Assembly (NCBI GenBank): GCA_948954545.1
Contig: CARCRR010000028.1
Location: forward strand, 1-48,081
Source of the DNA: an uncultured Lachnospiraceae bacterium
GTDB taxonomy: Bacteria > Bacillota > Clostridia > Lachnospirales > Lachnospiraceae
Reading direction: 5' to 3'
DNA length: 48,081 nt
The notes beneath the pieces were generated by a model. That model did no database searches. It was not told the origin of the DNA and saw nothing but the letters and a program-made list of their open reading frames with translations. Shown piece by piece: positions 8,625 to 46,655 of the stretch; position 1 is the first letter of the stretch; each line of letters opens with the position of its first letter. Both the position numbers and the translations under genes were made by a program.

Positions 8625-8865
8625 GGACGCCAGAGTATGGCATTGCAGTACTGTTTCGCTCTACAGAAAGTAAGAAGCTCTAAGACTTCTGAATTTAGAT
8701 GCATCCAACCGGACGGACCGGGGTGCAATTCGCCCGTGCTGCGGGCTAAACACACCCCTTTTTTTGCCATTCGAGAATGGCAAAAAATCCTAATGAATCG
8801 ACAGAAGTCTAAAAGCTTCTAACTTTCCTCCGAAGTCACAGTACTGCAATGCCATACTCTGGCTG
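8625..8865 (-). repeat. Family-1 foldback element, copy 2 (reverse orientation).
   Basis: Termini GGACGCCAGAGT...ACTCTGGCTG, the same central hairpins, and a copy-specific self-complementary arm segment TATGGCATTGCAGTACTG / CAGTACTGCAATGCCATA. Confidence 0.85.
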
Positions 8866-12703: not shown

Positions 12704-12856
12704 ACTCCTAAACTACATCCTTCCTAATTCAAAATCCCATCTCTATCCACACACCAAAAAATATCATACCACTCCTCATTCCACCAAACCACCCCAAAAT
12801 TCCCTCCCATTCCCACCTGAATAAAAAATAAAAATCAAATCTATCGCCAGAAAGAA

Positions 12857-13108
12857 CCAGCTGGAGTTTGGAAGCCCTTTCTCTATGCAGTGACTTCGGA
12901 GAAAAGTTAGAAAGTCTTATGCCTCTGTCGATCTCCTAGGATTTTTGCCATCTTCTGATGGCAAAAAAGGGGTGTGTTTAGCCCGCTGCACGGGCGAATT
13001 GCACCCCGGTCCGTCCGGTTGGATATATTTTCATTCAGAGGCATTAGACTTTCTTACTTTTCGGAGAGCGGAACAGCATAGAGAAAGGGCTTCCAAACTC
13101 CAGCGTCC
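12857..13108 (+). repeat. Family-1 foldback element, copy 3.
   Basis: Termini CCAGCTGGAGT...ACTCCAGCGTCC. Its terminator-like hairpin has a compensatory stem (GCCATC-ttct-GATGGC). Confidence 0.85.
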
Positions 13109-13116
13109 CCTACACC

Positions 13117-13300
13117 ATCCCCCCAGCTTTTCTATCCTAATATCCACACACCATCCCCCAGCTTTCCCATCTCAATATCCACACATCATCCCCCAACTTT
13201 CCCATCTCAATATCCACACACCATCCCCCCAACTTTCCCATCTCAATATTCACACCATCCCCCCAACTTTCCCATCTCAGTATCCACACCATTCCCATTC
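13117..13300. repeat. Tandem repeat, ~33-34 bp unit x ~5 (consensus AACTTTCCCATCTCAATATCCACACACCATCCCCCC).
   Basis: Read directly. It lies immediately right of family-1 copy 3 and left of the carboxypeptidase stop codon. Confidence 0.8.
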
Positions 13301-13323: not shown

Positions 13324-14832
13324 TCAAGAAATCCCATACAACTTCTCATACTTTTCCGTAAGATACCCCACAAAATAATCAGGATTAAATTCCTCCCCAG
13401 TAGCTTCCTTTAAAATCTCCCGTGCCTCCTTAAAAGCACCATACTGATGCACATACCGATGCAAAAACTCCCGTACAACCCCAATATTTCCCCTAGAAAG
13501 CTCCGACTCCACATCTATCTCACTCTTCATCTTAGCATAAATCTGAGCCGCAAAAGCATTTCCAAGTGCATAAGAAGGAAAATACCCAATATCCCCCATA
13601 GACCAATGTACATCCTGCAAAATCCCCACCGTATCATTCTCTGGTACCACTCCCAAATACTCCTGATACTTCTCCTTCCAAAGCCGAGGCAGTTCCTCCA
13701 CCTCCACTTCCCCATTTATCATCAGCTTTTCCAACTCATACCGAACCATAATATGCAGACAATACGTCAGCTCATCTGCCTCTGTTCGAATCTCATCTGC
13801 CCGAACCCGATTAATTGCCGCTACAAACTGATCCAAAGAAACCTCCCCCAACTGTTCTGGAAACGTTTCTACTAACTTTCCATAAATAGGCACCCAAAAA
13901 GCCCGGCTCCTCCCAATCATATTTTCCATCAGCCGAGACTGTGACTCATGAATCCCACAGGAAGCCCCTTCTCCCAACACAGTCTGCGTATACCGATCCG
14001 CAATCCCCTGTTCATAAATCGCATGTCCACTCTCATGAATTGTAGAAAAAATTGCCCCTGCCAAATTATCCTCATAATAATGAGTCGTAATCCGCACATC
14101 ATGATTATGCCAAGCCGTTGTAAAAGGATGTTCACTTTCCGCAATCACTCCGCGATTCAAATCAAATCCAATATACTCTGCCAAAAACCGATTAAACTCC
14201 TTCTGCTTTTCAATATCATACTTCTGATACAAAAAAGAATCCTCAATCTGCGGCTTCTTTTGAATCTTTCGAAGCAGCGGAAGAATCCCCGCCTTTAGCT
14301 TTTCAAAAAATACGTCTAACACTTCCACGGAAAAATCCTCTTCATAATCATCTAAAAGCACATCATACCCGTTTAATTTCTCTGTCGCACCATAAGAAGC
14401 AAACTTTTTGCAGTATGCGATCACTTCCTTTAAATAAGGAGCAAAGATTGAAAAATCATTTTCTTTTTTTGCCCTCTGCCATGCCTTCTGCGACTTTGAC
14501 TTCAGTTCCGCATAAGCCCGCTTCTCCTCCTTAGGAATTGCTTCTGTTTTTCTCAAATTTTTCTTTATTTTTCGAATAATCGCCTGCTCCGTCTCTTCCT
14601 GCTCCTTTGTCTCTTCTGTTTTAGACTCATAGTCCTCTAAAATCTTCTTTACCTGCGGATTAGTCAGACACAGAAAATCCTCTTCCGATAAAATCCCGAT
14701 TACCTTTGCCGTATACTCTCCTGCTTCCTTTGGTGCAAGAGTTGCATCGTCCCAATCTAATAGGGCAAGTGCTGTCTGTAAAGCCATATGTTTTTCCAAA
14801 TAAGGCACTAACTGTTCAAAAAGCTGACTCAT
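13324..14832 (-). CDS. M32 family carboxypeptidase (carboxypeptidase Taq-like).
   Basis: HESGHAIYEQG zinc-binding motif, ~500 aa, with the M32-typical HPF, DIRITT and GxxxYxxSY blocks. Confidence 0.85.
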   Translation of the reverse strand: MSQLFEQLVPYLEKHMALQTALALLDWDDATLAPKEAGEYTAKVIGILSEEDFLCLTNPQVKKILEDYESKTEETKEQEETEQAIIRKIKKNLRKTEAIPKEEKRAYAELKSKSQKAWQRAKKENDFSIFAPYLKEVIAYCKKFASYGATEKLNGYDVLLDDYEEDFSVEVLDVFFEKLKAGILPLLRKIQKKPQIEDSFLYQKYDIEKQKEFNRFLAEYIGFDLNRGVIAESEHPFTTAWHNHDVRITTHYYEDNLAGAIFSTIHESGHAIYEQGIADRYTQTVLGEGASCGIHESQSRLMENMIGRSRAFWVPIYGKLVETFPEQLGEVSLDQFVAAINRVRADEIRTEADELTYCLHIMVRYELEKLMINGEVEVEELPRLWKEKYQEYLGVVPENDTVGILQDVHWSMGDIGYFPSYALGNAFAAQIYAKMKSEIDVESELSRGNIGVVREFLHRYVHQYGAFKEAREILKEATGEEFNPDYFVGYLTEKYEKLYGIS

Positions 14833-22786: not shown

Positions 22787-22972
22787 TGTGGTTCTCCTTA
22801 CCCATAGTGTTACAAACCTGCTTCGATTAATCGAACATATATACGATTGTAGCAGATTTTCTATTATCTGACAAGACCTTAATTCGAATCGATCGAATAG
22901 TAATCTGATTATTTATAGTGAGCCAGAAAGTTATTTATAGTGAGCCGAATGATTGTTTATGGCGATCCGGAC

Positions 22973-23112
22973 GATTGCATCTGCTGGTGATTCCCTGCTG
23001 GGGCCGTTTGCACTAAGGCTTCCTCGCAGCGGACACATAAGGCACGAAAGTACCGTGCCTAAGTGCCGGCGGGAAGCAATACCCCTGCAGGGATTCACCA
23101 GCAGCTACAATC
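22973..23112 (+). repeat. Family-3 unit A, 140 bp: 16-bp outer arm GATTGCATCTGCTGGT, GATTC, 98-bp conserved core, GATTC, 16-bp complementary arm.
   Basis: The core CCTGCTGGGGCCGTTTGCACTAAGGCTTCCTCGCAGCGGACACATAAGGCACGAAAGTACCGTGCCTAAGTGCCGGCGGGAAGCAATACCCCTGCAGG is shared with 23733, 36849 and 37238. Confidence 0.85.
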
Positions 23113-23146
23113 TGTCTATCTCAACGGAATGTTTGATAGAATCGCT

Positions 23147-23407: not shown

Positions 23408-23614
23408 GGATTTAATTTAACCTCCTAAATCTTTAAATTAAAAATATATCGCCTATTTTATATAAAAATGCGGAGAGAAATCCATATTTTTCCTCTCCGA
23501 TCTATTTACCATCTCTATTATAAAAGCAGCCTTAAAATTTTTCAACTATATTTTATTATAAATATAATATTCCATGTAAAACATAGGAAAATTTTCACTA
23601 AAGCATAAAAATCA

Positions 23615-23718
23615 AAGGAAATTCGCAATCCGCTTCACTACTCGCTCATAACCTCATAGCCACTATCGCAACTTTTCAATGAAAGTCTAAAGTCTGCACT
23701 TCCTTGATGAGGTTAAAA
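23615..23718 (+). repeat. Family-2 repeat, degenerate copy (left module + variant middle hairpin + right end).
   Basis: ATTCGCAATCCGCTTCACTACTCGCTCATAACCTCAT ... ACTTCCTTGATGAGGTTAAAA. Confidence 0.7.
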
Positions 23719-23732
23719 TAAGGTACAAAACA

Positions 23733-23872
23733 GCTCGCCCTAAGGGATCTTTCTTTGCAGGGGTATTGCTTCCCGCCGGCACTTAGGCACGGTCTTTTCG
23801 TGCCTTATGTGTCCGCTGCGAGGAAGCCTTAGTGCAAACGGTCCCAGCAAAGAAAGATCCCTTAGGGCGAGC
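23733..23872 (-). repeat. Family-3 unit B, 140 bp. Outer arms GCTCGCCCTAAGGGAT / ATCCCTTAGGGCGAGC; the pentamers are CTTTC / GAAAG (inverted here, not direct).
   Basis: Same 98-bp core in reverse orientation. Confidence 0.85.
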
Positions 23873-23979
23873 GTCAGGACTACCCAAAACAATTCTAAAT
23901 CAAACAATCCCAAACCACTCCAAACAATCGAAACTCTACAATAAATGAAAAACTTAGTATAAAATATATTATACCTATT

Positions 23980-25554: not shown

Positions 25555-25681
25555 CAAGTCAAATCGGATATTCGCAATCCGCTTTGCTACTTGCTCCTAA
25601 CCTCATCAAGGAAGTCCACCGCTTTCGCCTTGGCGGCTTAGAAGCGGGGGACTTCCTTGATGAGGTTAAAATATTGAAAAT
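25555..25681 (+). repeat. Family-2 repeat, full copy (left module CAAGTCAAATCGGATATTCGCAATCCGCTTTGCTACTTGCTC + 19-bp-stem hairpin).
   Basis: Direct repeat of 27790-27911. Confidence 0.85.
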
Positions 25682-25889: not shown

Positions 25890-26771
25890 ATGAATAGTAG
25901 AGATATTCTAGATGCCGCCAAAAAAGAATTATCTTCTTTAGACAGTCATTTGATTGATGTACTAGATATCAAACGTCCAACAACATTAGCATACGCAAAA
26001 CAACTCGCAAAAGTTATCTCAAAACTTTCTCCATTGTTGGGAAATATGATTGAATTTTCTACAATTGACTTATTAAATAAACACGACTGGAATGGCGTAG
26101 GTGAATGGATAAGGCAAGATCCTGGTTTCCCTGATGCACTTTTCAAGAGTAGCATAATCCAACCTAACCCTGGTATCGAAATTAAAGCATGGTTTCCTTT
26201 TGCAACAGAAATCACAGCACGCTTCAAGGACAGTGTAACGATTTTTGCACAAGATAATATAGATATGGCACTAATTGCATGGCTACCAGAGAATGTTATT
26301 TGGGGAAAGCCTCAAATTATTGATGTCCTTATAGTTAGCGGTAAGAGTGTTGCAGAAGCAAGAGATTCCCACTACCATAAACCACCTGACTATCTTGTTT
26401 TTGAACCAGAAGACACCTCTGAACGTACCACTAATTTGCAGCAAACCAACACGAATGGTTATAAATTACAATCAGATAAATGCGATGCTAAAGCTGCATT
26501 TTCCATTGTTGAAACATGGGGAAAAGATGCCCAAAGATACAGTCCTGCCCCAGAATATCAACGACTTCTAAGAACTCTATACGGACAATTTATTTATAGA
26601 CTTGATACTAATTATGCCAAAATCGACCGTATAGAACATGAGGAAATTGAACAATTTAAAACCCATGTTTTAAATACTGTTTTTCATAGTATGACAATCA
26701 AACAATGGAGTGAAATTTTATCCTCAAAAGATGAAAAAAAGTTAGAGAACGCATTGAAAACCATCCTGTAA
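25890..26771 (+). CDS. Putative type II restriction endonuclease (PD-(D/E)xK candidate), 293 aa.
   Basis: Candidate catalytic motif FPD-x14-EIK (…QDPGFPDALFKSSIIQPNPGIEIKAW…). The gene is convergent with, and overlaps by 30 bp, a DNA methyltransferase gene, in an AT-rich local composition. Confidence 0.45.
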   Translation: MNSRDILDAAKKELSSLDSHLIDVLDIKRPTTLAYAKQLAKVISKLSPLLGNMIEFSTIDLLNKHDWNGVGEWIRQDPGFPDALFKSSIIQPNPGIEIKAWFPFATEITARFKDSVTIFAQDNIDMALIAWLPENVIWGKPQIIDVLIVSGKSVAEARDSHYHKPPDYLVFEPEDTSERTTNLQQTNTNGYKLQSDKCDAKAAFSIVETWGKDAQRYSPAPEYQRLLRTLYGQFIYRLDTNYAKIDRIEHEEIEQFKTHVLNTVFHSMTIKQWSEILSSKDEKKLENALKTIL

Positions 26772-27740
26772 ACTGTTTTTTACTCGTTCTACTGCTATAT
26801 TATATACATCATGATTGATTTCTGCACAAAAACAAATTCGTTCCAACTCAGTTGAAGCAACCGCTGTTGTACATAATCCAGCAAATGGATCCCAAACCAC
26901 ATCACCAACATCAGAAACCATTTCTATGATACGTTTAATCAATTCCAATGGTTTCTGATTTAGATGTATTGCCTTTTGGTTAATTTTCAAGCGTTCATGC
27001 CCTCTCAACTGTGGAACCTGCCATACATTTGTCACACCAATAGGACAATAAAACTTTGAACGCATCTGTGCCCACTCTTTTTTTGTTATAACGGTTTTAC
27101 CATTTAAAGAAAAGTATGGTTTTCCATTATCTGCTCCAAATGTATTTGCATATACTGCAATCTTTTCAAAAGCTTCTGCAGGCGGCATATACCATAAATG
27201 ACATTTTGTAAAATATTTTCTTGTTGCGGCATCTTTCACTCCACAAGCTTCATTTGTTTTTGAAAATGGAAGCCCTGTACGTTCCCATTCATAGCGCAGC
27301 CATTCTTTCATTGTCATTTGAACCTCCCCTACCATAAAGATAGGCTTTTTTACATATTGAACACACACTTCTGTAACTACAGGCAAATGTCTAATCGTTT
27401 TAGTATTTGTATTTCCCGCTGCATGTCCCATTCCTTTATCCCATACACAGCAAGAAACATAATCCCAGCCATATTTTTCTAACATAGGGTGAACCGTTGC
27501 CCAGCCAACCTCAGTACACCAAAACCATAACGTTGTAAGCGGTGTAGCAAAAGAACTCCATTTTTTTATATGTGGCTCATACCACTCTGCAAGTCCTTTA
27601 TATGAAACTAAATCTCCTGGAAATCCATTTACGCCATATGGTCCATCACAGATTATAACAACTGGAGTTTTCCATTTACTATATAATCTAATCGCATCCC
27701 CACAATATAAATGAATATTTTCAAAATCTATTTTATCCAC
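26742..27740 (-). CDS. DNA methyltransferase, beta-class (motif IV before motif I), N6-adenine or N4-cytosine.
   Basis: ICDGPYG (DPPY-like motif IV) near the N-terminus; VVWDPFAGLCTTAVAS (motif I, AdoMet binding) near the C-terminus. Confidence 0.8.
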   Translation of the reverse strand: MDKIDFENIHLYCGDAIRLYSKWKTPVVIICDGPYGVNGFPGDLVSYKGLAEWYEPHIKKWSSFATPLTTLWFWCTEVGWATVHPMLEKYGWDYVSCCVWDKGMGHAAGNTNTKTIRHLPVVTEVCVQYVKKPIFMVGEVQMTMKEWLRYEWERTGLPFSKTNEACGVKDAATRKYFTKCHLWYMPPAEAFEKIAVYANTFGADNGKPYFSLNGKTVITKKEWAQMRSKFYCPIGVTNVWQVPQLRGHERLKINQKAIHLNQKPLELIKRIIEMVSDVGDVVWDPFAGLCTTAVASTELERICFCAEINHDVYNIAVERVKNSLQDGFQCVL

Positions 27741-27789: not shown

Positions 27790-27911
27790 CAAGTCAAATC
27801 GGATATTCGCAATCCGCTTCGCTACTTGCTCATAACCTCATCAAGGAAGTCCCAACCCACCGCTTTCGCCTTGACGGCTTAGAAGCGGGGGACTCCCTTG
27901 ATGAGGTTAAA
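27790..27911 (+). repeat. Family-2 repeat, full copy.
   Basis: CAAGTCAAATCGGATATTCGCAATCCGCTTCGCTACTTGCTCATAACCTCATCAAGGAAGTCCCAACCCACCGCTTTCGCCTTGACGGCTTAGAAGCGGGGGACTCCCTTGATGAGGTTAAA. Confidence 0.85.
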
Positions 27912-29099: not shown

Positions 29100-29309
29100 C
29101 CTTCTTACCTCTCACTCTATTCATAAAATTTACAAAAAATTCCCGTCCTGCTTTCCTCTCTTCTCCTAATATATCACGAAATCTGCTTTTTCACAACCTG
29201 ATTTTACATTTTCACAATGCAAATTTCCTTTTTCAATCTAACAATACCCATTCCCAAGCAGTTCCATCTCGCCTTTTATTCTTTTTATTAATAAAAATAC
29301 AGGAAAAAA

Positions 29310-29562
29310 CAGCCAGAGTTTGGAAGCGATTCTTTTTTGCTGTGACTTCGGAGAAAAGTTAGAACGTCTTATGCCTCTGTCGATCCACTAGGATTTTTTG
29401 CCATTTCCAAATGGCAAAAAAAGGCACGTGTTTAGCCTCCTGCAGAGGCGAATTGCGTGCCGATCCGTCCGGTCAGATGCACCTAAACTCAGAGGCATTA
29501 GCCGTTCTTACTTTTCGGAGAGCGGAACAGCAAAAAAGAATCGCTTCCAAACTCTAGCGTCC
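29310..29562 (+). repeat. Family-1 foldback element, copy 4.
   Basis: Termini CAGCCAGAGT...ACTCTAGCGTCC. Both central hairpins carry compensatory substitutions (GCCATTT-cc-AAATGGC; GGCACG..GCCTC-ctgca-GAGGC..CGTGCC). Confidence 0.85.
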
Positions 29563-29596
29563 CCCTCCCCCATTTCCCTACAAAACTCCCATTTCC

Positions 29597-32517: not shown

Positions 32518-32537
32518 TTCTTTTAGTCAAAGGAAAT

Positions 32538-32690
32538 AAGGAAATTCGGAATCCGCTCCTTCCTCATAATCCTATGCTGCTATCGCTGCTTGTCAGATGG
32601 GACTTTCCCCCAGCTGACACAAGGAAGTCCCCCAACCCACCGCTTTCGCCTTCACGGCTTAGAAGCAGGGGACTTCCTTGATAGGTTAAA
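32538..32690 (+). repeat. Family-2 repeat, variant copy with an extra middle hairpin module.
   Basis: …ATTCGGAATCCGCTCC…TGTCAGATGGGACTTTCCCCCAGCTGACA…CAAGGAAGTCCCCCAACCCACCGCTTTCGCCTTCACGGCTTAGAAGCAGGGGACTTCCTTGATAGGTTAAAA. Confidence 0.75.
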
Positions 32691-32739
32691 AAACACAAAA
32701 GCCCCGGATCTCTCCGGGACTTACTCTGCCGCAAAATCA

Positions 32740-36720: not shown

Positions 36721-36848
36721 TACTCTAATTTTACCAAGAGTATTTCCCTAATTTTCAAGGCTTATTCAATTTCTAAAGAAAAGTTATCAGAAAAAAGGAA
36801 AACCACTTCAGCAATTATAAACCAGATATTGGTATTGTAGAACCGGAC

Positions 36849-36988
36849 GCAGGTAGCATAGAGAGATTCTTTGCTGGGGCCGTTTGCACTAAGGCTTCCT
36901 CGCAGCGGACACATAAGGCACGAAAAGACCGTGCCTAAGTGCCGGCGGGAAGCAATACCCCTGCAAAGATTCTCTCTATGCTACCCGC
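36849..36988 (+). repeat. Family-3 unit C, 140 bp. Outer arms GCAGGTAGCATAGAGA / TCTCTATGCTACCCGC; GATTC on both sides.
   Basis: Same 98-bp core as unit A. Confidence 0.85.
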
Positions 36989-36989
36989 T

Positions 36990-37237
36990 GTTTCGTTCCC
37001 CCTAGAAATAATGCCTCATAAACGTTTTTATTCCGCCTGTTGGCTTGTTCCTCCTGGAAACAATGCCTCACAAACATTTTTACTCTGCCTGCCGATCCAT
37101 TCCTCCTAAAAACAACACTCTGCAAAAATTCTCTATTCTGCCTATTGACGTATTTCTCCTGGATTAAACTATCTAAAATCACACAAAAACGGTTTTAGTC
37201 AACCAAAATACTGCGACTGTTCCGGTTGGAATACACA
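36990..37237. repeat. Degenerate tandem repeat, ~52-bp unit x ~3.5 (…CCTCCTGGAAACAATGCCTCACAAACATTTTTACTCTGCCTGCCGATCCATT…), filling the gap between family-3 units C and D.
   Basis: Read directly. Confidence 0.7.
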
Positions 37238-37377
37238 GCTGACACCACTGGATGAATCTCTGCAGGGGTATTGCTTCCCGCCGGCACTTAGGCACGGTCT
37301 TTTCGTGCCTTATGTGTCCGCTGCGAGGAAGCCTTAGTGCAAACGGCCCCAGCAGAGAATCATCCAGTGGTGTCAGC
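37238..37377 (-). repeat. Family-3 unit D, 140 bp. Outer arms GCTGACACCACTGGAT / ATCCAGTGGTGTCAGC; GAATC on both sides (= GATTC in the core's orientation).
   Basis: Same core in reverse orientation; it lies 75 nt past the addA stop codon. Confidence 0.85.
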
Positions 37378-37452
37378 GTCCCCCCAACAGAAAATCACCC
37401 AATGATGTCAGCGTCCCCCCAACATATATTCGTTTAAATTCAAATCATTCGC

Positions 37453-44724: not shown

Positions 44725-44960
44725 ACGCCAGAGTACTTGAAAGGGAACTGTTCCGCTCTCCGAAAAGCAGAAGCTCTAAGACTTCTGAATCTAGGCATAT
44801 CCAACCGGACGGATCGGGGTGCAATTCGCCCGTACAGCGGGCTAAACACACCCCTTTTTTTGCCATTCGAGAATGGCAAAAAATCCTAGTGGATTGACAG
44901 AAGTCTAAGAGCTTCTAACTTTCCTCCGAAGTCACAGTTCCCTTTCAAGTACTCTGGCTG
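44725..44960 (-). repeat. Family-1 foldback element, copy 5 (reverse orientation).
   Basis: Termini ACGCCAGAGT…ACTCTGGCTG; self-complementary variable segment ACTTGAAAGGGAACTG / CAGTTCCCTTTCAAGT. Confidence 0.85.
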
Positions 44961-45070: not shown

Positions 45071-45112
45071 GGTCAAATCGGATATTCGCAATCCGCTTTG
45101 ACTATCCCTATC
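45071..45112 (+). repeat. Family-2 repeat, left module only (solo fragment).
   Basis: GGTCAAATCGGATATTCGCAATCCGCTTTGAC. Confidence 0.6.
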
Positions 45113-45454
45113 AGACAGTTCTCTATATCAGCCGTAATCATTTTATGCCTGTATTTTATACACCAAACAATATGATATTGGATGGAATATACCTATCCAC
45201 GTCCATGAGTCACTTCCATATAGAATCACCTCGTTATACAAACGATAATAGATGTATGTTGTTATATCAATTATTTTTAATATTATTACTTGAAATTTAA
45301 TTAACATCTGTGAACAATTCATCCCACGACTAAATGCTCATGTACGGTAAAGAAGCAAGCAACCGAAAACAAGAGATAGACCGCCAGCACCACACTATTC
45401 CGAACCAAAGGCCAAAAGACAAGCATGATGGAATCCCTCTCTCATTCCTTTATG

Positions 45455-45913: not shown

Positions 45914-46655
45914 ATGAAAAGAATAATGGTTATTTTAGGCGGCGGGCGTGTCAATGGAAATACATCACAGTTAGCAGAAGCATTTATGAACGGAGCTAAA
46001 GAAGCCGGACACCAAGTAGAGATGGTATCATTGAACAAACTGAATGTAAATGGCTGCATAGGCTGTAATGCCTGTCACTATGGTAAATCTTGTGTACAAA
46101 AAGATGATTTTAACCTCATCAAGGAAGTCCCCCGCTTCTAAGTCGCCAAGGCGAAAGCGGTGGGTTGGGACTTCCTTGTTTCAGTGGGAGTGCAGACTCC
46201 CACTGAAAAGCTGCGATAGTAGCTATGAGGTTATGAGCAAGTAGCGAAGCGGATTGCGAATATCCGATTTGACTTCACTTGTTCCAAAGATAAAAACGGC
46301 GGATTTAATCGTATTTGCGTCACCTTTATATTTCTGGACTGTATCATCAAAAATTAAAGCATTTATTGAACGTTTTTACTGTATAGCAGAAAAAGACGAG
46401 AATCCACCTTTGGGACGATATGAGAAATATCCCATACATGATTGTGCTTTGCTTATGACTTCCGCTGATAACTTTTTTTGGACGTTTGAGCAGGCTGTTT
46501 CTTACTATAAGTTTACATTGATAAACTATATCGGTTTTTACGATAAAGGTATGTTGCTTGCTGGTGGTTGTGGTGAAACAAACGGGAAACCTCAGATTTC
46601 AAAAACCACTCATTTAAGGGAAGCATATGAATTTGGAAAAGCAATTTACGAATAA
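45914..46655 (+). pseudogene. NAD(P)H-dependent FMN reductase / flavodoxin-like fold gene interrupted by a 163-bp family-2 element (at 46112-46274).
   Basis: The two ORFs 45914..46141 and 46254..46655 are N- and C-terminal halves of one protein (…CIGCNACHYGKSCVQKDDF | SLVPKIKTADLIVFASPLYFW…). Deleting 46112-46274 fuses them in frame. Confidence 0.8.
46112..46274 (-). mobile_element. Family-2 element (three-module variant) inserted within a coding sequence.
   Basis: The reverse complement reads GAAGTCAAATCGGATATTCGCAATCCGCTTCGCTACTTGCTCATAACCTCAT + middle hairpin CAGTGGGAGTCTGCACTCCCACTG + …GGGACTTCCTTGATGAGGTTA. Confidence 0.75.

Follow-up and report, generated by a model that had tools for sequence, protein, structure and literature searches.

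The window, by which we mean the whole stretch of 48,081 nucleotides analysed here from an uncultured Lachnospiraceae bacterium, contains seven copies of a short hairpin-rich repeat, referred to as Family 2. All seven had been named in a preliminary description of this DNA and all are real, lying at, or a few bases off, the positions first assigned to them. A nhmmer profile of 21 diverse copies returned exactly seven matches in the window, with E-values from 2e-54 to 2e-6. Motif searches of the window gave 13 matches to a 12-mer, against 2.6 expected by chance, and 3 matches to a 52-mer, against 0 expected. The top strand is defined here as the strand reading TTTAA, left end, right end, which is the reverse complement of the strand quoted in the preliminary description. 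The locations given there stood, but the leading 'CAA' of its left module and the trailing 'TTAAA(A)' of its right module belong to the flanking DNA. On that strand the inserted DNA reads GTCAAA...GATGAGG, and the 'TTAAA' common to all window copies is the target sequence, the reverse complement of TTTAA.

The copy under study occupies positions 25558-25665 on the minus strand. It is 108 nt long and consists of the large hairpin and the core, without the middle hairpins M1 and M2. In top-strand order, its left end and large hairpin run from 25665 to 25607, and its invariant core and right end from 25606 to 25558, finishing ...CCGATTTGAC. The target TTTAA (TTAAA on the plus strand) lies at 25666-25670, outside the element and adjoining its left end. 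The inner loop of its large hairpin is shorter, by a small deletion, than at the corresponding locus of a related MAG. A second minus-strand copy of large hairpin and core, 114 nt long, is located at 27793-27906, with its target TTTAA at 27907-27911. Both copies are situated inside a strain-variable restriction-modification island, away from its borders, and therefore no claim is made that they mobilised it.

The other copies differ in completeness. On the minus strand, the copy at 32526-32685 has the full architecture (large hairpin, M2, M1, core) and represents a diverged subfamily with a different left module as read on the strand first quoted. Its target TTTAA (32686-32690) falls within the T-tract of a terminator at 32699-32722, and the copy was found in all four related contigs examined. 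The degenerate minus-strand copy at 23611-23712, with its target TTTAA at 23713-23717, retains the core, M1 and outer stem, and has mostly lost M2 and the large hairpin. At 1-56, also on the minus strand, a left end and large hairpin are interrupted by the window start, with the target TTTAA at 57-61. A right-end fragment of 31 bp (45072-45102), to which no strand is assigned, forms a hairpin between the inverted repeats GTCAAA and TTTGAC. Finally, a full copy of 160 nt lies at 46114-46273, next to its target TTTAA at 46109-46113, and is the only window copy whose top strand is on the plus strand.

This last copy is located inside a flavodoxin-family gene (45914-46655, plus strand), which it splits into 45914-46113 and 46274-46655 with a shift of frame. 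Excision of 46114-46273 in silico yields a protein of 193 aa, 98% identical to intact homologues. The corresponding empty site, GATGATTTTAA joined directly to TTCACTTG, was found in four other samples, which indicates that the insertion is recent; in the window the filled site carries exactly 160 nt, CCTCAT...GATTTGAC, at the empty-site junction. A second empty site was found in phage contigs, where ATGGAGTTTAA joins TGTATATG and the filled site carries 158 nt, CCGAAT...GCTTGAC. Deletion of these 158 nt restores a phage ORF of 198 aa, which two related phages carry uninterrupted. The predicted phage empty site gave no match in an exact-match scan and was located by a protein-based search instead.

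From these two independent empty sites, it can be seen that the inserted DNA is 5'-CCTCAT...TTTGAC-3', placed directly 3' of TTTAA. In both comparisons there is no target duplication, and the junction lies exactly after TTTAA, between A and T. The flank logos and the two empty sites also show asymmetric ends without terminal inverted repeats. The left end adjoins TTTAA in 65 of 69 copies, and the target is usually followed by T or A. Each of the three bases directly beyond the outer stem is A in 56-58 of 59 copies, with no conservation further out. Two genes are thus broken by insertions, and the presence of the element is polymorphic both between near-identical strains and between related phages. 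Family 2 is a genuine mobile DNA element, non-coding and high in copy number, that is found in gut Lachnospiraceae and in their phages.

The element is modular, as the preliminary description had claimed: an invariant end of about 45 nt is combined with zero to three hairpin modules and closed by an outer stem. The left end begins 5'-CC(T/G/A)(C/A)AT and leads directly into the long hairpin, and the right end is the invariant segment of about 45 nt finishing ...CCGAT(T)TGAC. The middle part had been taken for a single hairpin; it is actually two, the variable M2 and, beside it, a small conserved M1 that had been overlooked (AGCTGC-GATA-GCAGCT on the top strand). One of the three middle hairpins originally quoted, that of the degenerate copy, is a decayed remnant that forms no hairpin. 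The modular reading had been staked on independent recurrence of the modules, and they do recur elsewhere in various combinations. Among 141 core matches, the full form accounts for 45, large hairpin plus core for 19, core with only the outer-stem strand for 12 and core alone for 23, while 34 are interrupted by contig ends. The large hairpin stands alone in a few copies. Forms with internal deletions are numerous, and those retaining both ends are common.

Single-strand folding exceeds that of shuffled sequences under DNA parameters (z from -6.3 to -10.2) and, for four full-length copies, under RNA parameters (z from -4.7 to -11.5). The degenerate copy folds no better than its shuffles (z of -0.2 and -1.1). 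A covariance analysis, which had been proposed as a check, revealed strong covariation of the hairpins: 24 of 56 pairs show compensatory changes and 98% of cells are paired. The observed level was reached in 0 of 500 shuffles, and slid controls gave 2-5 pairs. The hairpins are maintained by compensatory substitutions. The right end is maintained at the level of sequence, with the core invariant in 21 of 21 diverse copies. Subterminal hairpins fold at both ends and the left-end domain covaries; the hairpins of the two ends are dissimilar in sequence. Read on the top strand, the non-Watson-Crick pairs are mainly G:U, with 30 cells against 8 for A:C, and substitutions leaving a G:T wobble comprise 23 distinct events on the top strand against 13 on the bottom, which is a trend only as to which strand folds.

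Sequence comparison shows homology between the invariant right end and the core of Clostridiales-1 (RF01699), an orphan motif in Rfam. A whole-window Rfam search with gathering scores and E <= 1 gave no match on any copy, and the match appeared only when small stretches were searched, at 18.1 bits for window positions 46229-46265 and 25.5 bits for a copy elsewhere (L091), the gathering score being 48. The invariant module corresponds to model positions 74-121, aUGAGcAnGnAGc-[hairpin]-gCGGAnUGCGAAu on the top strand. All strongly conserved bases are shared, as is the irregular hairpin UGAGCAnGnAGC...GCGGAnUGCGAAU with the same GA/GA and GNA/GGA internal loops. Both have a long hairpin 5' of the core and gut Clostridiales as hosts, and in one metagenome copy (L179) the inner hairpin is the larger one that characterises the motif. 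The diverged copy at 32526-32685 has GGAA/UUCC in place of GCAA/UUGC, and we read this exchange as keeping the pairing proposed for Clostridiales-1. Given this homology, the right end probably also has a separate function, in which its irregular hairpin, as RNA or as single-stranded DNA, would bind a protein.

At least 120 stretches from several Lachnospiraceae genera were found by a scan with a right-end 21-mer. Among the matches listed, one MAG supplied 30 of the first 80, and contig ends were a frequent location; genomes carry dozens of copies. Copies are also present in phage collections and phage contigs. No match to the element was found in a plasmid collection, and in literature full text no paper matched a 13-mer of it. 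Where both flanking genes point the same way, the top strand shares their direction in 38 cases and opposes it in 8. In the window, six of the seven top strands are on the G-rich minus strand (GC skew of the plus strand, -0.28), and the direction of the one inverted copy is that of its host gene, not of its neighbours. This bias in orientation is that expected for IS200/IS605 elements; selection by the direction of transcription fits equally well. Copies are also located inside genes and between divergent (10) as well as convergent (16) genes.

The reading towards which we lean, and hold to be probable but far from settled, is that Family 2 represents a non-autonomous element of IS200/IS605 type, similar to PATEs, whose movement, as single-stranded DNA, depends on a Y1 transposase provided in trans. 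Since no autonomous partner was found among the loci listed, the action of this transposase in trans is a step that we infer. The Y1 (HUH) TnpA would bind the hairpins in the top-strand ends and cleave after TTTAA and after TTGAC. The excised single strand would then be re-inserted 3' of another TTTAA, mainly on the lagging-strand template, by 'peel-and-paste'. The internal hairpin modules may be dispensable stuffer, gained and lost by slippage, which would explain the modular variants. The target bases TAA always pair with an internal TTA, which fits a mode of recognition, like that of IS608, in which the target is read by a sequence inside the element. Published elements provide precedents. 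The left end of IS605 and mini-IS605 in H. pylori lies beside 5'-TTTAA(A) (PMC2993954), and TTTAA is both the insertion site and the TnpB TAM of a Sulfolobus IS605, whose reRNA ends in UUCAC, one base off TTGAC, directly before the guide (PMC11043419). Gene-less PATEs are mobilised in trans and are said often to encode omega RNAs (PMC10055086). Against a TnpA stands the observation that many copies keep the right end with variable loss of the left, which its chemistry leaves unexplained.

Among about 250 loci listed, tnpA or tnpB was found between or beside matching Family 2 ends in none, and clustering of ORFs around 120 listed genome loci and then 120 listed metagenome loci revealed no recurrent transposase. 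The ORFs adjoining truncated copies were ordinary unrelated host genes rather than TnpB-like. Traces of the expected family do occur. In the window, the N-terminal remnant of an IS200/IS605-family Y1 transposase (45103-45219, minus strand; MEVTHGRG, a stop and VYSIQYHIVWCIKYRHKMITADIENCLIGIVK) ends exactly where the right-end fragment at 45072-45102 begins, forming a fusion. The inner 19 bp of this fragment are inverted between the window and two close relatives. At another locus (L018), a tnpA'-tnpB' remnant is fused to the right-end module in the expected orientation. Protein searches from the window tnpA remnant and from the L018 tnpB remnant recovered decayed fragments only, and an intact TnpA of 138 aa (L067) has no Family 2 ends beside its gene. 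The near-complete IS605 relatives reached through these searches (L132, L133 and L135) have different end hairpins, with right ends finishing GTAGTTCAC. A weak collinear similarity links the 34 nt that precede the right-end hairpin of Family 2 to the right end of an IS605 relative, with a score of 27 against 15.1 +/- 2.3 for shuffles.

Several of these observations can also be read as evidence of RNA. The element may primarily be a structured-RNA gene on the top strand, either a multi-copy small RNA of the Clostridiales-1 kind or a guide scaffold like an omega RNA or reRNA, with mobility as its means of spread; past the scaffold end ...UUGAC, a putative transcript would continue with flanking sequence that guides a TnpB-like nuclease in trans. 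The top-strand match to Clostridiales-1, the strong covariation and the predominance of G:U on that strand are all in agreement with such a gene. Because the top strand runs with the local genes, read-through transcripts would include the element. The omega RNAs of PATEs and the UUCAC end and TTTAA TAM of the Sulfolobus reRNA also argue for it (PMC10055086, PMC11043419). However, covariation and G:T wobbles are equally compatible with folded single-stranded DNA, and the Rfam scores of 18-25 bits are below 48. A TnpB-like ORF lay within 600 nt in only 1 of 120 metagenome core loci listed, with a separate gene intervening, and tnpB beside the element, decayed remnants aside, in 0 of 120 genome loci listed. 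On balance, an RNA gene as the primary identity is possible but unlikely.

The retention of the right end suggests a different kind of movement, such as SINE-like reverse transcription from an invariant 3' end, an IS91/Helitron-type Y2 mechanism or a site-specific recombinase. The ladder of copies with one invariant end and variable loss opposite resembles 5' truncation, insertion between A and T without duplication is as in Helitrons, and no Y1 partner with matching ends was present among the loci listed. Even so, the truncated copies lack a TTTAA flank and resemble deletions into the flank, and the sample is enriched for them because the probe targeted the retained end. Forms with internal deletions and both ends are common, no gene for a reverse transcriptase, Y2 enzyme or recombinase recurs near copies at the loci listed, and TTTAA together with a TT(G/C)AC end fits the IS605 precedents. 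Such chemistries are accordingly considered improbable. The varied contexts of the core, namely phage replication modules, tandem arrays, a site antisense to the 5' coding part of a uvrB gene and the fixed end of the element, bring a further arrangement into view. Here the core would be a self-standing module bound by a host or phage protein, and Family 2 a new vehicle for it, with a non-canonical mover or as an unlinked guide scaffold in trans. We regard this as a rather doubtful proposal.

A service to the host was also considered, in which the copies would be hairpins of the BOX or REP kind for mRNA 3'-end stabilisation, termination or tuning of expression. In its favour, the majority of copies lie between genes and in the direction of those genes, the folds are highly stable, and one copy directly follows a terminator. 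The preliminary description had itself suggested mRNA-stabilising hairpins at gene 3' ends. Since TTTAA targets occur in terminator T-tracts and stop codons, that role is not needed to explain the positions, and copies also occur in genes and between divergent genes, not merely convergent ones. After the large hairpin the top strand continues with UUAUGAGC and the bottom strand with UUAAAA, and neither has a U-tract there; a scan for intrinsic terminators reported none at this hairpin and flagged only the 5-bp core hairpin, weakly. Two ORFs are disrupted, and presence differs among near-identical strains. Moreover, the copies are near-identical across genera and break assemblies, which indicates recent spread rather than a conserved local function. 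A host-serving role is thus very unlikely.

Least credible of all is that the core is a single-stranded DNA replication signal spread by the element, that is, a priming site or one like a single-strand origin: phage cores have a PD-(D/E)XK-like gene on one side and, on the other, an SSB-like gene preceding DNA polymerase (L149), or adjoin replisome-organiser and SSB genes (L143), orientation appears to follow leading-strand polarity, and the core contains GCGAAGC, which we take to be a very stable DNA mini-hairpin, and a TAGCGA hexamer that is presumably like CS-6 of ssoA origins, but the basis is context and short motifs, and most metagenome core copies have no replication genes nearby. Three other identities were rejected. 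An integron attC-like site, suggested by the GTTRRRY-like 'GGTTAAA', is at odds with perfect stems lacking extrahelical bases, a misfit of the inverse core and the identity of TTAAA as the target. A hammerhead based on 'UGAUGAG' is at odds with UGAUUCG at this place in the Blautia subfamily, and a Xer/dif-like site based on a shared 'ACTTCCT' with the multi-copy nature of the element.

If the IS200/IS605-type reading is true, Blautia, Hungatella, mouse-gut lineages and phages carry a very successful non-coding transposon that moves between genera, breaks metagenome assemblies and inactivates genes, such as the flavodoxin gene here. It would also provide the first biological context for Clostridiales-1, functionless since 2010, as its core would be the conserved end of a mobile element. 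The exact rule, in which the element follows TTTAA and ends in TTGAC, would ease annotation and in silico removal of copies, and would make the mover enzyme directly testable. A guide-RNA scaffold working in trans, should the element turn out to be one, would offer a useful natural case of an RNA that derives from a transposon and is unlinked to its nuclease.

Among known systems, the BOX elements of pneumococcus had been the first comparison. The likeness holds in form, with a conserved end module, optional internal hairpins in variable number and outer modules that pair together as a closing stem; stable structure, high copy number and a mostly intergenic location are also shared. It does not extend to behaviour. 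BOX is MITE-like, with terminal inverted repeats resembling those of ISSpn2 (PMC3049150), whereas Family 2, unlike BOX or a classical MITE, has neither terminal inverted repeats nor target duplication, and its TTTAA target is one-sided. The two are unrelated in sequence and belong to different host families. The preliminary description's 'unrelated sequence family' is therefore correct with respect to BOX, but not in the sense of lacking known relatives, as the invariant module matches the Clostridiales-1 core. That motif, 'probably an RNA' according to Weinberg et al. 2010 (PMC2864571), differs in turn. In Family 2 the inner hairpin is cut down to GC-GAA-GC, and the third hairpin (GGAUUGCGrGAG...GCAAUCC) and outer closing stem of the motif are missing, since only 7-8 nt separate the core from the end of the element; the 3' part of the model aligns there only to flanking DNA, with poor pairing. 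Clostridiales-1 proper occurs as single copies or tandem arrays without a TTTAA flank, and was never described as mobile.

REP and BIME sequences with RAYT transposases are also mosaic interspersed palindromes, probably mobilised by a Y1 HUH enzyme that is related to IS200 TnpA and acts on single-stranded hairpins. REPs, however, are units of 20-40 nt, usually in inverted pairs and flanking the RAYT gene, while Family 2 units are 110-165 nt long and single, with a defined TTTAA target and no transposase gene seen between copies. The closest comparison is with the mini-IS605 of H. pylori and the PATEs of Haloquadratum and Geobacillus. These share a left end adjoining a fixed 5-nt target (TTTAA, as in IS605), the absence of target duplication and terminal inverted repeats, asymmetric hairpin-rich ends, and a short (about 110-165 nt in Family 2), non-coding, multi-copy nature. 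The right end finishes TTGAC in Family 2 and TTCAC in IS605-type elements. In typical IS200/IS605 elements the end hairpins are alike, whereas those of Family 2 are unlike each other, and its left cleavage site, only 6 nt away from the hairpin, would be embedded in a perfect stem of about 20 bp, unlike that of IS608. No parent IS with matching ends was recovered for Family 2 among the loci listed. Its body, in contrast to theirs, is built of modular covarying hairpins and is near-identical across several genera and their phages.

The seven places named in the preliminary description, 25555-25681 and six others, are copies of one repeat, Family 2. The 12-mer quoted for it has 13 matches against 2.6 expected from shuffled sequence, and the 52-mer has 3 against 0. 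A repeat finder puts the copies in one group, and a MAFFT alignment of them reproduces the described modules. An nhmmer profile built from 21 diverse copies found exactly these places in the window and none beyond (E-values 2e-54 to 2e-6): 46109-46273 on the + strand and, on the - strand, 61-1, 23717-23609, 25670-25558 (the focal copy), 27911-27793, 32690-32527 and 45100-45072. Single-strand folding of the copies gave z scores of -6.3 to -10.2 against shuffles with DNA parameters. Under RNA parameters, z was -4.7 to -11.5 for the full-length copies, all four of which had lower energy on the strand opposite to that described, and only -0.2 and -1.1 for the degenerate copy 23611-23712.

The sole window copy in reverse orientation sits in a flavodoxin-family gene, splitting it into two reading frames. 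Intact 193-aa homologues exist with 97-98% identity, and the gene is uninterrupted in four contigs from four samples, whose DNA is 97-99% identical to the window. The alignment is unambiguous: the empty site is GATGATTTTAA / TTCACTTG and the filled site is GATGATTTTAA(CCTCAT...CCGATTTGAC)TTCACTTG. Exactly 160 nt (46114-46273) have been inserted, accompanied by neither duplicated bases nor inverted termini, and this copy is a recent insertion. It follows from the empty site that the TTAAA beside ...GATGAGG in every copy is target, outside the element, and that the element is naturally read on the opposite strand to that chosen originally. This top strand has the layout 5'-TTTAA / CCTCAT...large hairpin...(M2)...(M1)...ATGAGG-TTATGAGCAAGTAGCGAAGCGGATTGCGAATATCCGATTTGAC / T-3'. 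A copy of the Blautia-type subfamily was found in an IMG/VR phage contig (L148), where in silico removal of the predicted 158 nt (CCGAAT...GCTTGAC) restored a 198-aa ORF. Two related phages carry this ORF uninterrupted, the empty site being ATGGAGTTTAA / TGTATATG and the filled site TTTAA(158 nt)CGTATATG. The insertion rule is the same at both independent empty sites: directly after TTTAA, without duplication. TTTAA precedes 65 of the 69 fetched copies with an intact left end. Beyond the right end, the next base is T in 64% of copies or A in 22%, with no other conservation in the flanks. There is very little doubt that the element is mobile and follows this rule. The window insertions are of differing age, the flavodoxin copy being strain-specific whereas the copy at 32526-32685 is present in all four related contigs examined. 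Near the disrupted gene, a 196-aa ORF (47062-47652, +) matches an IstB-like (IS21 helper ATPase) domain over the domain's C-terminal part only and is probably what remains of an IS.

On the top strand, the 5' strand of the outer stem P1 consists of the first 6 nt of the element together with the target TAA, and its 3' strand is ATGAGG-TTA. P1 encloses a large hairpin, CAAGGAAGTCCC...GGGACTTCCTTG, with inner stems of its own. M2 is an optional variable hairpin, M1 an optional small hairpin (AGCTGC-GATA-GCAGCT), and P1 is followed by an invariant module of ~45 nt. Among 141 occurrences of this module in the fetched DNA, 45 belong to full copies, 19 have the large hairpin only and 12 the 3' strand of P1 only; the rest include 23 bare modules and 34 cut by contig ends. 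Also present are forms with only M1, a few solitary large hairpins, and many copies with internal deletions in which both termini are retained. The short forms resemble products of deletion between CTTG/ACTT microhomologies brought together by the large hairpin. These combinations bear out the modular build first proposed, in which M1 had been overlooked; the third hairpin quoted there, in copy 23611-23712, is a degenerate remnant.

The two main subfamilies diverge across the hairpin domain, and every helix is retained in both. P1 is CCTCAT/ATGAGG in one subfamily and CCGAAT/ATTCGG or CCAAAT/ATTTGG in the Blautia subfamily. RNAalifold, applied to 21 aligned diverse copies, predicted 56 pairs, with standard pairs in 98% of cells and compensatory changes in 24 of the 56. 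None of 500 shuffles reached this level, and sliding of the partners left only 2-5 such pairs. The target TAA pairs with an internal UUA in all 21 copies. The last 41 alignment columns, the invariant module, show zero variation, indicating constraint in sequence beyond structure alone. As for strand, non-standard pairs comprise 30 cells that are G:U on the top strand against 8 that are G:U on the other. When single substitutions were counted more carefully, paired positions showed the same direction (23 distinct events against 13), short of significance, and unpaired positions were even at 8 and 8. The top strand is parallel to both flanking genes in 38 cases and antiparallel to both in 8, with 16 copies between convergent and 10 between divergent genes. 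Six of the seven window top strands lie on the - strand, which has leading-strand polarity, since ~93% of the coding sequence is on it and the + strand GC skew is -0.28.

The window is an ordinary Clostridia chromosome segment, with genes including PolA, RuvAB, AddAB, a GerA germination protein, tmRNA and tRNAs; a metagenome contig is 100% identical to it over 20.9 kb, and a mouse-gut Lachnospiraceae MAG (L002) is a close relative. The ~2.9-kb segment 25497-28357 holds a DNA methyltransferase (26742-27740), an unannotated 293-aa gene (25890-26771) and two element copies, both inside rather than at the borders. Two related contigs (L156, L161) have ~170 nt of unrelated sequence in its place, and it appears to be a strain-variable restriction-modification island. 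Additional repeats were observed. In a second family, in both orientations, 8659-8834 (-) is a full-length Rfam TwoAYGGAY RNA (68 bits, gathering score 43), with four further copies (2694-2957, 12847-13110, 29299-29564, 44748-44939) ~80-92% similar. A third, GC-rich family of ~150 nt, in both orientations at 83-99% identity (22969-23125, 23730-23875, 36845-36991, 37225-37381), had no Rfam match at E <= 1; one copy directly adjoins element copy 23611-23712. Five tandem copies of a C-rich unit of ~35 nt (CCCCCAGCTTTCCCATCTCAATATCCACACACCAT) at 13120-13299 overlap the 3' end of an M32 carboxypeptidase gene (13324-14832) or sit just downstream. An 812-aa protein (177-2615, -) matches the major-vault-protein shoulder and repeat domains and, weakly, SPFH/Band 7, an unusual combination for a bacterium.

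A scan of one genome per species with a 21-mer of the invariant module gave at least 120 stretches. The matches listed include two mouse-gut MAGs, Blautia schinkii, B. wexlerae, B. aquisgranensis, 'Ruminococcus' sp. AM22-13 and AF46-10NS, Hungatella MAGs, Anaerotaenia torta, Lachnobacterium and an Eubacteriaceae MAG; a single MAG supplies 30 of the first 80. Many listed stretches lie ~25-50 nt from a contig end, and thus the repeat breaks assemblies. Copies are present in phage collections too. Important gut bacteria, and their phages, carry the element in abundance. No published description of Family 2 was found in a literature search.

Clustering of ORFs around 120 genome loci with copies revealed no recurrent family beside them, and the ORFs abutting truncated copies are unrelated host genes. 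With an approximate IS608 TnpA sequence, used as a tblastn probe only, an intact 138-aa Y1 transposase was found in a copy-rich MAG (L067) and an IS605-type tnpA-tnpB in L091. The window itself has a Y1 transposase remnant, 32 N-terminal residues (45192-45097, -), which runs straight into the right-end fragment 45072-45102. A decayed tnpA'-tnpB' in L018 likewise ends at a right-end module in the expected orientation. More complete relatives of these remnants (L132; L133-L136) carry end hairpins of a different kind (CCCAYTGGCTTTAGACRRTGGG) and right ends finishing GTAGTTCAC, so they are not the parent of the element. The 34 nt before the right-end hairpins of the element and an IS605 relative show only weak collinear similarity (score 27 against 15.1 +/- 2.3 for shuffles). 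Protein searches with both remnants returned only other decayed fragments. At 45072-45102, the inverted repeats GTCAAA and TTTGAC enclose 19 bp whose orientation is opposite in L121 and L122 (~98-99% identical), TCGGATATTCGCAATCCGC against GCGGATTGCGAATATCCGA, a small hairpin-inversion polymorphism. The Rfam motif RAGATH-18 occurs directly downstream of the TnpB-like gene of L091 (6238-6299, -, 78 bits) and weakly at the right end of an IS605 relative (L133 2143-2182, +, 27 bits), which suggests that it may be part of TnpB guide RNAs.

In short-stretch searches, the invariant module on the top strand matched positions 74-121 of Rfam Clostridiales-1 (RF01699), listed as probably an RNA, not cis-regulatory, of Clostridiales and the human gut, without a function (Weinberg et al., PMC2864571). 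Every strongly conserved base (UGAGCAnGnAGC...GCGGAnUGCGAAU) and the irregular hairpin with GA/GA and GNA/GGA internal loops are matched. The core is common to both, but the inner stem is shortened to GC-GAA-GC in the element, which scores 18.1 bits at 46229-46265 and, in a full copy from L091, 25.5 bits, both below the gathering score of 48. In the diverged copy 32526-32685, GCAA/UUGC has become GGAA/UUCC, a change that by our reading would keep the Clostridiales-1 pairing and break a simpler CGGAU/AUCCG hairpin. When metagenomes were scanned for cores whose inner hairpin is larger, at least 120 stretches were obtained; among the matches listed, gut and rumen samples had the classical three-hairpin motif, and one element copy (L179) had a large inner hairpin in its core. 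Tandem core arrays with periods of ~100-320 nt occur in seven metagenome or viral contigs (L143, L175, L243, L245, L248, L253, L273), and the L143 array adjoins an apparent phage replication module, by eye a replisome organiser, SSB and RecT-like gene. In nine related phage contigs, the motif lies between PD-(D/E)XK-like and SSB-like genes, ahead of a DNA polymerase gene (by eye). In 36 contigs among the matches listed (L162, L166, L171 and ~33 others), the core is opposite the 5' coding part at a uvrB locus. There, the first ~30 codons of a UvrB-like ORF (N-terminal region ...FKLKAPYKPTGDQPQAIAELVKGF, by eye) are opposite the core, and L195 and L274 are shorter alleles without part of the insert. 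Among the 120 metagenome loci listed, tnpA/tnpB was near the core in one, with another gene intervening, and there was no other recurrent neighbour. The element supplies the first context for this orphan RNA motif.

The mechanism that seems most likely, with moderate confidence, is that a Y1 transposase supplied in trans would move the element by acting on its folded top strand. It is favoured because of the IS200/IS605-like properties and the precedents for a TTTAA target. Against it stand the missing parent, the dissimilarity of the left and right end hairpins, a left cleavage site buried within a perfect stem, and the ladder of copies retaining only the right end. One rival is that the element is a guide RNA. 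Another is retro- or rolling-circle mobility. A hairpin serving the host is a third rival; the tendency of copies toward gene ends is explained by the occurrence of TTTAA in terminator T-tracts and TAA stop codons, as in copy 32526-32685, located in the T-tract of terminator 32699-32722. A fourth is a single-stranded DNA replication signal. Reading the large hairpin as a terminator fails, as no U-tract follows it on either strand. The identity of the enzyme that moves the element is now a testable question.

The resemblance to pneumococcal BOX elements drawn in the preliminary description holds in form and not in kind: BOX has terminal inverted repeats resembling those of ISSpn2 (PMC3049150) and Family 2 has none. 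For trans-mobilisation by a Y1 transposase, the comparison is with IS200/IS605 elements and their gene-less derivatives; four of the testable features of their non-autonomous members were found in the element, and a matching autonomous IS was absent from the fetched loci. As in the element, these have a pentanucleotide target on one side only, differing hairpin-rich ends, and neither duplication nor inverted repeats. Their top strand also has leading-strand polarity, with which the orientation of the copies agrees, a bias that the direction of transcription would explain equally well. Mobilisation in trans is the proposed route for gene-less PATEs (PMC10055086). The target itself also matches: the left end of H. 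pylori IS605 and mini-IS605 adjoins 5'-TTTAA(A) (PMC2993954), and in Sulfolobus IS605, whose RNA ends UUCAC, TTTAA is both the insertion site and the TnpB TAM (PMC11043419).
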